Both the position numbers and the translations under genes were made by a program. Under the pieces are notes generated by a model, which worked only from the letters and a program-made list of their open reading frames with translations, made no database searches and was not told where the DNA came from. 38,463 bases of DNA, from the NCBI GenBank assembly GCA_964567575.1, contig CAZMMZ010000005.1:28715-67177 (forward strand). The letters run 5' to 3'. Shown piece after piece: positions 20,508-23,771 of the stretch (position 1 is its first letter; every line of letters begins with the position of its first letter). This DNA comes from Candidatus Undinarchaeota archaeon. Lineage in GTDB: Archaea; Undinarchaeota; Undinarchaeia; Undinarchaeales; UBA543.

Positions 20508-21803
20508 ATGAACTTTATACCAATTCAAGAAGCATTAAATAAAAAGAATGAAGGTAAGTTAGTTTCTATTCGCGGATGGGTTTATCGCGAAAGGAAATTG
20601 AAAGATAAAGCTTTTATTGTGATTCGAGATGCTTCTAATATTATTCAAGCAGTTGTCAAAAGCGATAACAAGAAACTGTTTTCTGAAGCTTCTAAATTAA
20701 CAATGGAAAGTTCTGTGCAACTTTCTGGGAAAGTTCGAAAAGATGACAGGGCTCCTACTGGTTTTGAAATCGATGTTACTTCGCTTGAGATTGTCGGACT
20801 TGCTGAGCGTTTTCCAATTACAAAAGATCAAGGTGCAGACTTTCTTTTAGACAATCGTCATTTGTGGCTAAGAAGCCGTCGTATGACAGCGATTATGAAG
20901 ATTCGCCACACTGTTGTTGGAGCGATTCACGAGTTTTTCAGAAGTAATGGTTATTACGAATTTGATCCGCCAATTATGACAGCAAATGCTTGCGAGGGTG
21001 CAATGACTTTGTTTGAAGTGAAATATTTTGATGAGATTATGTATCTTTCACAGTCTTGGCAACTTTATGCAGAAGCTGGAATTTTTGCTCTTGAAAAAAT
21101 CTATGATATGTCTCCGACTTTCCGAGCTGAGCCATCTAAAACATCAATGCATATTGCTGAGTTCTGGATGGCGGAAATGGAAGCAGCGTGGATGAAGTTG
21201 GATGAAGTCACTGAAGTTGCGAAAGATGAAATCAAATTTATTATTCAAAAAGTTCTTGATGAAAACCGTGCGGAGTTGGAATTACTTGGTCGCGATGTTA
21301 AGATTCTTGAGAAATATGCGAAAGCGAAGTATCCAACAATCACTTACACAGAAGCGTTGAAGATTCTTGATAAGGAATACAAAATGAAAATTCCATGGGG
21401 CAAAGATCTCCGTACAAAAGAGGAAGAGCTTCTTGGTAAACACTTTGGAGTTCCTGTTGTTGTTATTAATTATCCTAAAGAAATCATGGCTTTCTACAAG
21501 CCACCTAATCCAAAGAATCCGAAGGAAGCGCTATGCTTTGACATGATTGCACCGGAGGGTTATCGCGAAATTGTTGGTGGATCAGAACGTTCAACTGACA
21601 TTGCGCAGATGAAGAAGGATGCAAAGAAGAAAGATGCTAGTATTGGAAATTATGATTGGTACTTTGACTTGCGCAGATTTGGTAATGTTCCTCATTCTGG
21701 TTACGGTGTTGGGGTTGAGCGTGTGATTGCGTGGATCTGTGGAATTGACAACATAAAGGATGCTGTTACTTTCCCTAGAACAATGAATCGGATGACACCA
21801 TGA
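20508..21803 (+). CDS. asnS: Asparaginyl-tRNA synthetase (likely start ATG 20508)
   Basis: OB-fold N-terminus, NRHLWLRS, YLSQSWQLY, FRAE..EFW, PHSGYGVGVER; TATA at 20478-20485 is 22 nt from ATG 20508. Confidence 0.92.
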   Translation: MNFIPIQEALNKKNEGKLVSIRGWVYRERKLKDKAFIVIRDASNIIQAVVKSDNKKLFSEASKLTMESSVQLSGKVRKDDRAPTGFEIDVTSLEIVGLAERFPITKDQGADFLLDNRHLWLRSRRMTAIMKIRHTVVGAIHEFFRSNGYYEFDPPIMTANACEGAMTLFEVKYFDEIMYLSQSWQLYAEAGIFALEKIYDMSPTFRAEPSKTSMHIAEFWMAEMEAAWMKLDEVTEVAKDEIKFIIQKVLDENRAELELLGRDVKILEKYAKAKYPTITYTEALKILDKEYKMKIPWGKDLRTKEEELLGKHFGVPVVVINYPKEIMAFYKPPNPKNPKEALCFDMIAPEGYREIVGGSERSTDIAQMKKDAKKKDASIGNYDWYFDLRRFGNVPHSGYGVGVERVIAWICGIDNIKDAVTFPRTMNRMTP

Positions 21804-22399
21804 GCCCAAAAAAGAAAACTCCAAAAAAATCAATTAAAAAAACTAGTTCTAAAAAGAAATCTGTGAAAGAACCACCAGAATTTGAAGATTTTATAACTCA
21901 GGAAGAAAAAGAGGAATATATTGAAGAGCAACTTGAGGATATTGGAGAAGCAATTGAAGAAGAGCTTGATGAAAGTTTGAAAAACTTAAATAAAAAAGAG
22001 GAGCCTGTTGCTGTTTTTGTTAAGGATAAAGAAACTGCAAAGGATATTAAGCGTTTGCGAAAGACTTTGTCAAGTGGTTTAGAAACAACGCAAAAAGGAA
22101 TTGTTGTTTTCTATGAGCAAGCAAGCGAGGCTGGCAATCGAATTCGTGGTTTTACTTTCATGCTTCTTGGAATTTCGTTTATGTTTATGGGTTTCTTTGC
22201 AAAGGATATTGATTTCGTAACATTTAAAGAAATTCTTGTTTCATTAACTAATACAATATCGGGTCGGATAATTGTTTGCACAATTGGTTTTACTGTTTTT
22301 GCATATGGAAGCCGAAAGTTTTTGAAAGGTTTAATGACTCCATTTTTGGAAAAGATGTTTCCTAAAAAGAAGAAATACGTGCAGAAGAAGTTGGTTTAA
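21800..22399 (+). CDS. Hypothetical membrane protein: basic N-terminus, acidic block, two TM helices
   Basis: Long ORF coupled to asnS (ATGA overlap), native codon style, two hydrophobic stretches. Confidence 0.7.
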   Translation: MSPKKKTPKKSIKKTSSKKKSVKEPPEFEDFITQEEKEEYIEEQLEDIGEAIEEELDESLKNLNKKEEPVAVFVKDKETAKDIKRLRKTLSSGLETTQKGIVVFYEQASEAGNRIRGFTFMLLGISFMFMGFFAKDIDFVTFKEILVSLTNTISGRIIVCTIGFTVFAYGSRKFLKGLMTPFLEKMFPKKKKYVQKKLV

Positions 22400-22453: not shown

Positions 22454-22531
22454 GCCCCGATGGTGTAGTCCGGTCAATCATTTGGCCCTCTCACGGCCAG
22501 GACAGGGGTTCGAATCCCCTTCGGGGCACCA
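22454..22531 (+). tRNA. tRNA-Glu (anticodon CTC), CCA encoded
   Basis: Acceptor GCCCCGA/TCGGGGC, anticodon arm TGGCC-CTCTCAC-GGCCA, T-loop TTCGAAT, ends ACCA. Confidence 0.95.
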
Positions 22532-22541
22532 TTAACATTAT

Positions 22542-22615
22542 GGGCCCGTAGATCAGTCCGGTAGATCGCTACCCTGGCATGGTAGAGGCCTCGAGTTCAA
22601 ATCTCGACGGGTCCA
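22542..22615 (+). tRNA. tRNA-Ala (anticodon GGC), CCA not encoded
   Basis: Acceptor GGGCCCG/CGGGTCC (G3-U70), anticodon arm CTACC-CTGGCAT-GGTAG, T-loop TTCAAAT. Confidence 0.95.
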
Positions 22616-22678
22616 CTCATTTCCACTACCTTTTTAAACTTTAATTTTATACTATTATTGAGGGTGTAATTTCTAACA

Positions 22679-23362
22679 ATGCTTCCAGTTAACATTATCA
22701 AGATTATTGGAGAACCAGGGAAGAACGCGGTTTTGATACTTGATGTTTTATTTAAGAAGAAAGCGAAGGCATCGCTGCATATTGTTTATGCTGATGATAT
22801 TCGCGCGTACTGTGTTAAGAATCCTGCCAAGTTTCCAATTTCTCCAGCTGCTGCAGTTTCTGAAGCGCAGGTTTTGAATTGGTATGGTGTTGTTAAAGTA
22901 ACAAAGCATAACGACAAAATGATTATTGAAAAAGATAAAATGTTTGACGAAGTTGCTAAACTTGCTAAGAAATCTAAACCAAAAACTCAAAAGAAAGTTC
23001 CTAAGAAAAAACCCTCAAAATCTTTTGAATCTATTTTTGATTCATTTCTAGTTAAACCAAAACCGAAAAAGAAAACTGTTAAAAAGTCTGTAACTAAAAC
23101 TAAAAAGAAGGTAAGTAAAAGTGGAAAACGAAAACTGCATATTTTGCAAAATAGTAAAAAACGAAATACCAAGCAAAAAACTGTACGAAGACGAAAAGTT
23201 CCTAAGCTTTCTGGACGTAAATCCAAAAGCAAAAGGCCACGCGCTCGTAATACCAAAAAACCATTACGAAACGTTCCTCGACATGCCGGAAAGCGAGGAA
23301 AAGGAACTGTTCGCAGTAGCACAAAAGCTCGGAAAACAACTAAAAGAAAAACTAAACGCTAA
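22679..23362 (+). CDS. Hypothetical protein: ~90-aa globular (possibly winged-helix) domain plus 134-aa Lys/Arg-rich tail; last 80 codons overlap the HIT gene
   Basis: TATA (22631-22638) and GAGGGTG SD upstream; tail 59 K/R vs 2 D/E; codon-bias evidence for the overlap. Confidence 0.75.
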   Translation: MLPVNIIKIIGEPGKNAVLILDVLFKKKAKASLHIVYADDIRAYCVKNPAKFPISPAAAVSEAQVLNWYGVVKVTKHNDKMIIEKDKMFDEVAKLAKKSKPKTQKKVPKKKPSKSFESIFDSFLVKPKPKKKTVKKSVTKTKKKVSKSGKRKLHILQNSKKRNTKQKTVRRRKVPKLSGRKSKSKRPRARNTKKPLRNVPRHAGKRGKGTVRSSTKARKTTKRKTKR

Positions 23363-23519
23363 GCATATTTTTCTTTTGGTGATGGGTACTGATGTGCCAC
23401 ATACTCATGTTCATCTTATTCCTTCATATGAAGGTGCTGAATTAGATGCAATTAAATTAGGTGATAATGTTGAAACAGATTTAGATGCTGTTTTAGCAGA
23501 AATAAAGGAGGAAAATTAA
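23121..23519 (+). CDS. hit: HIT family nucleotide hydrolase (GTG start)
   Basis: CIFCKIV, FLDVNP, GHALVIPKNH, HTHVHLIP triad; AAGGT SD-like at 23108-23112. Confidence 0.95.
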   Translation: MENENCIFCKIVKNEIPSKKLYEDEKFLSFLDVNPKAKGHALVIPKNHYETFLDMPESEEKELFAVAQKLGKQLKEKLNAKHIFLLVMGTDVPHTHVHLIPSYEGAELDAIKLGDNVETDLDAVLAEIKEEN

Positions 23520-23771
23520 ATGTGGGAATTAGTTGGTATTGCAGCTTCTGTTTTGACTAACATTGGTTTGCTAGTTCAAGTTATTCATGGCATTCGAACT
23601 CGAAAGCTTACGGATCTTTCTTATGGTATGTTAACCCTGCTTGGTGTTGGTCTTGCTTGCTGGCTTGCATATGGAATTCACTTAGCTGATTGGGTTATTG
23701 TTACTGCAAATATTGCTGGTGTTAGTTTTGTTTCAATGCTTCTTGCAATGAAATATGCTTTCTCAAAATAG
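23520..23771 (+). CDS. SemiSWEET/PQ-loop family small transporter
   Basis: Three TM helices, Q..H.IRTR..TDLSY, WLAYG, TAN pattern; PQ motif appears as VQ. Confidence 0.8.
   Translation: MWELVGIAASVLTNIGLLVQVIHGIRTRKLTDLSYGMLTLLGVGLACWLAYGIHLADWVIVTANIAGVSFVSMLLAMKYAFSK

Follow-up and report, generated by a model that had tools for sequence, protein, structure and literature searches.

A 242-nucleotide same-strand overlap in marine Undinarchaeota that probably arose by overprinting of a HIT hydrolase gene

Overprinting is well known in viruses, including as a source of viral de novo genes (PMC3494269), and the loss of a stop codon followed by 3′ extension is the standard model for unidirectional gene overlaps in prokaryotes (PMC3887535). 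In cellular genomes, long co-directional overlaps are usually put down to faulty annotation. Among 338 surveyed genomes, no co-directional overlap exceeding 60 base pairs (bp) proved to be real, and the longest real example was 56 bp (Palleja et al. 2008; PMC2478687). Here we describe a 242-nucleotide (nt) overlap between the gene for a 227-residue protein and the gene for a HIT-family hydrolase. It is located on a 38,463-nt stretch of DNA (the window, whose numbering is used throughout) from a Candidatus Undinarchaeota archaeon (contig CAZMMZ010000005.1, positions 28,715 to 67,177). The carriers of these doubly read bases are a small group of marine DPANN archaea (Undinarchaeota). A previous sequence-only reading of the window, made from its letters and open reading frames (ORFs), had proposed that the HIT gene is overprinted and that overprinting of this length is rare in prokaryotes. 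Double reading maintained over such a length is very rare in cellular genomes. We favour genuine same-strand dual coding, arisen by overprinting, with a probability of roughly 0.8, and the overlap would then be a new and unusually long cellular case of this process.

The locus shares several features with stop-loss overprinting as described previously (PMC3494269, PMC3887535). An older frame, that of HIT, appears to have been overprinted by a younger and taxonomically restricted frame, and the novel product is biased in composition and predicted to be disordered. The synonymous sites of the older gene are constrained, and the likely origin is the loss of a stop codon that was already located just inside the downstream gene. 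Unlike viral overprinting, the host is a cellular archaeon and the older gene encodes a housekeeping enzyme. Unlike viral de novo genes, the novelty is a tail on an existing folded protein rather than a free-standing protein. The holD/rimI pair of Enterobacteria is likewise a same-strand terminal overlap that is kept among related species, with both proteins conserved across it, although the present overlap is more than four times longer. Under the length rule of PMC2478687, the upstream gene, which exceeds its orthologs in length, would count as carrying an erroneous 3′ extension, but the conservation of the overlap and the constraint on its sequence argue against this class. Another point of reference is the rnpA/rpmH pair of Thermus, whose nested arrangement is backed by experimental proof (Feltens et al. 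2003, as described in PMC9841429). As outlined in that source, this pair also involves two cellular proteins whose same-strand genes share more than 100 nt in different frames. There, the smaller gene is fully nested and one initiation site is shared, whereas here the tail of one gene lies over the head of the other, the starts are 442 nt apart, and both products are predicted from sequence. The Undinarchaeota locus would represent the de novo birth of protein sequence inside an archaeal housekeeping gene, with a traceable origin, a clean codon-level signature, and maintenance across three diverged species.

The upstream ORF is read from the same strand as HIT and in its −1 frame (Table 1), such that each HIT wobble base across the overlap is the first base of an upstream codon. 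The source genome (G000), from a DPANN archaeon, comprises 745 kilobases and is 82% complete. Over the entire 242 nt, neither frame contains a stop in this genome or in two other species of the same Undinarchaeota genus (G001 and G002). In G000, the third positions of HIT codons 1–80 comprise 40 A, 23 C, 11–12 G, and 4–5 T, whereas those after the overlap comprise 29–30 T, 16 A, 6–7 G, and no C, where the spread reflects how codon 80 is counted. Genome-wide, T and C account for 0.38 and 0.11 of third positions in a crude set of 690 long ORFs, and five third-position T nucleotides per 80 codons is the minimum over 162,988 such intervals of the genome. The 80 overlapped residues of the upstream protein include 20 Lys and 16 Arg, or 36 basic residues in total, with no Asp or Glu. 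Seven of the 16 Arg codons are CGA, which are made from NNC-GAN junctions in HIT. These counts reproduce several observations from the sequence-only reading. It had reported an ORF that stays open through the first 80 HIT codons in the −1 frame and wobble counts of T 4/79 and C 23/79 inside the overlap versus T 30/53 and C 0/53 after it, which we match to within the counting of codon 80. It had also noted a switch from Lys-only sequence (21 Lys and no Arg in the linker preceding the overlap) to a mixture of Lys and Arg in an acid-free tail.

Open alternative frames of at least 80 codons are common in G000, where they occur in 89 of 1380 gene-frames. Raw openness was therefore dropped as a test in favour of tests conditioned on protein sequence, and weight was placed on the codon shift, its sharp boundary, and conservation. 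Computed exactly over the synonymous codons of the HIT protein with plain genome codon usage, the probability is 4e-7 for a stop-free second frame and 2e-9 for one that in addition lacks Asp and Glu. When codon usage is conditioned on the next base, the probability of a stop-free second frame is 2e-7, 8e-8, and 1.4e-6 in the three species. Synonymous shuffling, which the sequence-only reading had named as a gauge of how readily such a frame opens by chance, corresponds to a probability of about 1e-7. These values are low because the HIT N-terminus is full of codons starting with AA, AG, or GA, and it contains 35 'danger' junctions. The enrichment of C at the HIT wobble sites arises because T is avoided in two-fold degenerate codons ending in a pyrimidine.

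Across the G000 genome, third-position T has a frequency of 0.25 before A-starting codons compared to 0.38–0.47 before codons starting with C, G, or T. This genome looks to avoid T followed by A across codon junctions generally, so that fewer off-frame stops occur. Other same-strand ORF overlaps of at least 150 nt in G000 consist only of low-complexity shadow ORFs or artefacts of N runs.

A search for relatives that covered 41 related genomes yielded full-length, stop-free orthologs of the upstream gene only in G001 and G002 (64–65% identity). Elsewhere among the 41 genomes, the part of the query lying over HIT matches with 3–7 stops. The overlap is again exactly 242 nt in G001 and G002 with the same stop, and the tail ends in KRKTKR-stop in all three species. 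Third-position T occupies 6–7 of 79 positions inside the overlap in these two congeners versus 22–25 of 52 outside. The maximum-likelihood change point for third-position T falls after HIT codon 79 in each of the three species, with log-likelihood ratios of 23, 11.5, and 16. The HIT genes of four outgroup lineages have no comparable change point, as their best log-likelihood ratios are 1.2–6.8 and occur at unrelated codons. Scans of metagenome and GTDB contigs for further members returned only the same three lineages. Several marine metagenome studies contain contigs with exactly this locus sequence, and four marine or vent metagenome runs yielded contigs of identical sequence plus one G001-like variant. 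No RNA data set appeared among the sequencing runs listed for this organism, which has no bearing on expression.

Codon differences at conserved HIT residues inside the overlap number 13/63, 13/60, and 3/69 for the three species pairs (0.21, 0.22, and 0.04). The corresponding values for synonymous controls pooled from the rest of HIT, the SemiSWEET gene that follows it, and the non-overlapped part of the upstream gene are 64/149, 80/150, and 70/202, with individual controls ranging from 0.23 to 0.57 (Fisher P = 2e-3, 3e-5, and 9e-8). Divergence between G001 and G002 is flat across codon positions in the overlap (0.08, 0.06, and 0.06), as opposed to third-position divergence of 0.26–0.61 elsewhere. 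Synonymous turnover at the rate of the controls predicts that 5–8 new stops would have arisen at the danger junctions in each species pair, and none is seen (P = 4e-5 to 4e-3).

These comparisons bear on several expectations from the sequence-only reading. Conservation of the −1 frame in sister genomes was borne out by two congeners with the same 242-nt overlap and the same TAA, and synonymous variation is suppressed in codons 1–80 only (0.04–0.22 inside versus 0.23–0.57 outside). Stops in the −1 frame of orthologs, which that reading had listed as evidence against itself, are absent from the congeners and present in order-level orthologs. We interpret the latter as a sign of genus-specific novelty rather than as a refutation. 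A bias towards codons ending in A or C across the whole gene, which it had associated with a fragment of foreign origin, was not seen in relatives, and the two halves of HIT do not differ in their nearest relatives. Its central proposal, that synonymous sites of HIT are selected to keep the second frame open and basic, is supported by conservation, by suppressed divergence, and by tests of composition.

Regarding composition, third-position T is depleted even at junctions that are unable to form a stop (4 observed versus 16.8 expected, z = −4.9 in G000, with similar results in the other species). Thus, T-initial codons (Phe, Leu, Ser, Tyr, Cys, and Trp) are avoided in the tail. Third-position G would create Asp or Glu in front of A-starting codons, and it is found at 0 of 28 such sites versus 11 of 50 elsewhere in the overlap (Fisher P = 0.006). 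Genome-wide, G before A is not avoided. The 36 Lys and Arg residues of the tail compare with 20.5 ± 2.8 in synonymous shuffles, which is 5.5 standard deviations above the mean. Because T-initial and acidic codons are avoided with no stop at stake, these patterns point to selection on the composition of the tail itself, and its hydrophilic and polycationic character is, by these tests, under selection. The HIT N-terminus is rich in AAR, AAY, GAR, and GAY codons, for which the −1 frame would give Lys, Gln, or Arg after a wobble A or C, Glu or Gly after a wobble G, and a stop after a wobble T. By this rule, selection on the tail would show as the virtual disappearance of T and an increase in C at HIT wobble sites, up to the exact position of the tail stop. 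In this way, the genetic code predisposes a Lys/Glu/Asn-rich enzyme N-terminus towards a polycationic −1-frame product. Judged by these comparisons, both frames are open, conserved, and constrained.

Several points weigh against this interpretation. Where tail residues differ between species, the replacements are not markedly conservative (mean BLOSUM62 score of −0.35 to +0.09), although this pattern fits a tail selected for its composition and not for its exact sequence. The tail is confined to three species that inherited it from a common ancestor, and so tests across species are not independent. The support for the tail as a protein product comes from comparing sequences, and DNA binding by the winged helix and tail is proposed from predicted fold and charge only. 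Lastly, an antisense frame is open over the same stretch, and its bounding stop (CTA) overlaps the TAA of the tail. Therefore, the change point alone cannot separate these two frames.

The tail might be translated yet functionless, with RNA-level or translational demands keeping its frame open and poor in T. For example, termination in the 5′ region of HIT, or U-rich or structured RNA near the HIT start, might impair expression of the enzyme. The fairly free exchange of tail residues, including R/G, P/S, and T/A swaps, is consistent with this possibility, as is the fact that the moved stop alters HIT initiation and that ribosomes reading the tail must cross the HIT start. However, ancestral and outgroup genes terminate at HIT codons 2–4 without harm, and the depletion of T spans 240 nt, reaching far past the initiation region and ending exactly at the tail stop. 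Furthermore, the overlap has no Rfam match and its RNA folding energy is ordinary (z = −1.3). A functionless tail would also leave unexplained the loss of T at sites that cannot form a stop, the specific avoidance of acidic codons in the second frame, and the excess of Lys and Arg over synonymous shuffles. We therefore consider this explanation improbable.

The constrained second frame might instead be the antisense ORF (22987–23322, minus strand), with the open upstream frame as its by-product. No stop interrupts this frame anywhere in the overlap in any of the three species (123, 189, and 179 codons from stop to stop), and its bounding stop lies 1 nt from the tail stop (CTAA), which would create the same compositional boundary. 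In addition, HIT position 3 corresponds to antisense position 2, and antisense constraint would also suppress synonymous change in HIT. The details of the frame nevertheless fit poorly with a maintained gene. Its start is not conserved, being a GTG located 40 nt inside the boundary in G000 and a TTG located 28 nt inside in G001 and G002, with no ATG. Its length also varies, since a stop cuts it 134 nt before the HIT start in G000, whereas it extends 302–332 nt further in the other two species. The avoidance of third-position T continues upstream of the antisense starts, although this test is weak (P = 0.04–0.1), and residues encoded by the antisense frame undergo more radical replacement than those of either other frame (mean BLOSUM −1.6 to −0.8). 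The absence of G before A results in no Asp or Glu in the upstream frame, whereas in the antisense frame it would merely amount to avoidance of Ser. This antisense frame is rich in Phe, Leu, and Arg, and shadow ORFs rich in Phe and Leu are also found opposite other Lys-rich tails in G000. The upstream frame, in contrast, continues a conserved gene with its own promoter-like and Shine-Dalgarno (SD)-like motifs, and the ancestral gene already ended in that frame. An antisense gene is thus a highly improbable source of the constraint.

A further question is whether the 5′ part of HIT is still translated as HIT. The predicted enzyme matches Pfam family PF01230 over residues 14–104, spanning the overlap (E = 3.6e-23, 82.5 bits versus a cut-off of 21.5). 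The histidine triad HTHVH, which lies beyond the overlap, is invariant in all HIT orthologs. Residues 1–80 are 77–81% identical between G000 and its congeners, 89% identical between G001 and G002, and 59–73% identical to outgroup HIT proteins. The start codon is GTG in G000 and ATG in G001 and G002, where GAGG or GAGGT is located 4–5 nt 5′ of the ATG. Despite these features, automatic calls shorten HIT to 78–79 residues (starting at Met55) or to 45–46 residues in every public contig examined (L018–L023), and the full 132-residue sequence is not present in a collection of 15 billion proteins. Gene callers limit overlap length, which accounts for the truncation in public calls. As a consequence, metabolic reconstructions of these Undinarchaeota miss the intact enzyme. 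We also evaluated a programmed frameshift that would fuse the winged-helix protein to HIT. This was rejected, as the HIT frame is closed 9–63 nt 5′ of its start and a fusion needs no 80 open codons.

It is conceivable that the enzyme is truncated or dead and that the stretch encodes only the tail, as the uniform calling of a 3′ fragment and the GTG start in G000 could suggest. This is very unlikely for several reasons. The HIT frame is stop-free for all 132–133 codons in three species, with matching positions of the start codon and an SD-like motif, and the Pfam match needs residues 14–104. Residues 1–80 are conserved, and substitutions in the HIT frame are the most conservative of the three frames (BLOSUM +0.4 to +0.75). 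Moreover, HIT position 2, which is the wobble position of the upstream frame, diverges by 0.06–0.15 in the overlap compared to 0.5–0.6 at the wobble positions of the non-overlapped upstream gene. An assembly or frameshift error, or a recombined foreign 5′ fragment with different codon usage, is hardly credible even though the C-rich, T-poor wobble usage is foreign to G000, since the arrangement recurs in independent assemblies of three species and in contigs of many studies, the two HIT halves share their nearest relatives, no relative has such usage over the whole gene, and the enrichment of C follows directly from avoidance of T in two-fold degenerate codons.

Returning to overprinting as the preferred explanation, the origin of the tail can be approached through relatives of the upstream protein. 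An exhaustive HMMER search with residues 1–100 against 1.84 billion representatives identified only five true relatives of 83–119 residues, whose loci show the same winged-helix/HIT gene pair. In four outgroup lineages, the upstream ortholog (83–119 residues) stops 8–14 nt inside HIT in the same relative frame, and the HIT genes have 3–8 further stops in the −1 frame within codons 1–80. In one lineage, the small upstream gene and HIT are 194 nt apart. The overprinted tail is found only in one genus, and the overlap of 242 nt is absent from the outgroups. HIT is universal, and on this distribution the tail frame is phylogenetically younger. The location of the outgroup stops implies that the ancestral state was a short operon-type overlap, and the short outgroup orthologs that end inside HIT imply that the tail arose by stop loss and extension.

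A plausible sequence of events begins with a gene for a small winged-helix protein (~85–100 residues) located directly 5′ of HIT, in its −1 frame, and ending 8–14 nt inside it. In the common ancestor of one Undinarchaeota genus, the upstream stop would have been lost, a Lys-rich linker of ~50 codons carrying an SFESIFDSFL motif would have been added, and the 3–8 further −1-frame stops in HIT codons 1–80 would have been removed through synonymous changes in HIT. Presumably, a ribosome starting at 22679 now reads to 23362 and makes a 227-residue protein with a winged helix, a linker, and a disordered tail of 80 residues, whereas a ribosome starting at the internal SD-like motif and the GTG at 23121 makes the full HIT enzyme. 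Since the stop has moved 240 nt downstream, coupling of HIT translation through termination and reinitiation would have been replaced by independent initiation.

Residues 1–100 of the upstream protein are predicted to adopt a winged-helix fold. An AlphaFold2 model built from an eight-sequence alignment has predicted local distance difference test (pLDDT) scores of 82–92 for this region and 46–65 for the remainder, with the topology H-E-H-H-E-E-H for residues 1–100. Alignment of this predicted model using VIA-align gives Z = 10.8 and a root-mean-square deviation of 2.2 Å over 86 residues to the winged helix of Rio2, Z = 10.7 to that of Cdc6/Orc1, and values of approximately 9–10 to ORC, AF1382, PadR, MarR, and TubR domains. 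Across Rio2, Cdc6/Orc1, AF1382, PadR, and TubR, Z spans 10.8 to 9.3. Foldseek matches are mostly winged-helix DNA-binding proteins with weak E-values. The 227-residue protein matches no Pfam family at E ≤ 0.01, linker histone included.

Within the otherwise variable Lys-rich linker, the motif KSFESIFDSFL-x-KPK (23018–23062) is invariant in the three species and absent from outgroup orthologs. AlphaFold2 models a short helix at this site with low confidence, and the motif may serve as a short docking site. A reading of SFESIFDSFL as a PCNA-interacting protein (PIP) box was rejected on the basis of spacing, which is off relative to the consensus Qxx[ILM]xx[FY][FY].

The tail is predicted to be disordered and, by analogy, could bind nucleic acids non-specifically and so help the winged-helix protein to hold DNA (or RNA) more tightly. 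In architecture only, the protein resembles linker histone H1 and other winged-helix proteins in which a globular winged helix is followed by a long, disordered C-terminal tail rich in Lys and Arg. Unlike linker histones H1/H5, it shows no sequence membership in that family according to Pfam, and its best structural matches are winged helices of the Rio2, Cdc6/Orc1, and PadR types. The −1-frame polycationic tail and the linker motif might together have turned the protein into an H1-like general chromatin or nucleoid protein, with HIT output depending on upstream ribosome traffic. We regard this proposal as speculative and rather doubtful. A histone-fold gene (PF00808) gave no match in the 82%-complete G000 genome, which carries one Alba gene (L024, C12:14404–14592). 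Outside the window, two more helix-turn-helix-type proteins of G000 end in long tails rich in Lys and Arg (C3:36191–36592 and C5:25610–26272, both on the minus strand), each with a shadow ORF rich in Phe and Leu on the opposite strand. In this lineage, DNA-binding proteins seem prone to carrying basic tails.

Table 1. Features of the overlap locus, with positions in the 38,463-nt window
Feature	Position	Strand	Basis and remarks
tRNA-Glu(CTC)	22454–22531	+	ARAGORN, Rfam tRNA match; directly upstream of operon
tRNA-Ala(GGC)	22542–22616	+	ARAGORN, Rfam tRNA match; directly upstream of operon
TATA-like TTTTAAAC	22632–22639	+	Read from sequence; likely promoter of upstream gene (region 22630–22666), putative function
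SD-like GAGGGTG	22660–22666	+	Read from sequence; putative ribosome-binding site of upstream gene
Upstream gene, 227 residues	22679–23362	+	ORF; predicted winged-helix domain, Lys-rich linker, and overprinted basic tail; deposited as 'hypothetical protein'
Predicted winged-helix domain, residues 1–97	22679–22969	+	AlphaFold2, VIA-align, Foldseek
Lys-rich linker, residues 98–147	22970–23119	+	Alignments, composition; 21 Lys, no Arg
SD-like GAAGGT	23107–23112	+	Read from sequence; 8 nt 5′ of HIT GTG, within linker coding sequence; putative function
Overprinted tail, residues 148–227, and TAA stop (23360–23362)	23120–23362	+	20 Lys, 16 Arg, no Asp or Glu; predicted disordered
HIT-family hydrolase gene, 132 residues, GTG start	23121–23519	+	Codons 1–80 probably dual-coding; His triad HTHVH after overlap
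SemiSWEET-type (MtN3/PQ-loop) gene, third gene of operon	23520–23771	+	Pfam PF03083; ATG abuts HIT stop
Antisense open frame, 111 residues from GTG (123 codons stop to stop)	22987–23322	−	Judged a shadow ORF

The upstream gene, HIT, and the SemiSWEET-type gene form a three-gene operon on the plus strand, located 3′ of two tRNA genes, and the SemiSWEET-type gene occupies the same position in G001 and G002. The putative expression signals of the upstream gene recur among relatives, in which a comparable ATTTAAAC is located at about equal distance 5′ of the gene. G-rich, SD-like runs also occur at about equal distance, namely GAGGTGG in G001, TAGGGTGG in G002, and AAGGTG at the P0002 locus.

Between asnS and the tRNA genes, the window contains an ORF for 199 residues (21800–22399) whose product would be Lys-rich at the N-terminus, acidic in the middle, and hydrophobic towards the C-terminus, and which gave no above-threshold family match. 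A tRNA 3′ end also stands before the upstream gene at the G008 and P0003 loci, and the order of tRNA 3′ end, winged-helix gene, and HIT recurs in distant Undinarchaeota lineages (loci L010, L016, and L001). The winged-helix/HIT pair therefore seems to be an old unit located just 3′ of a tRNA gene.

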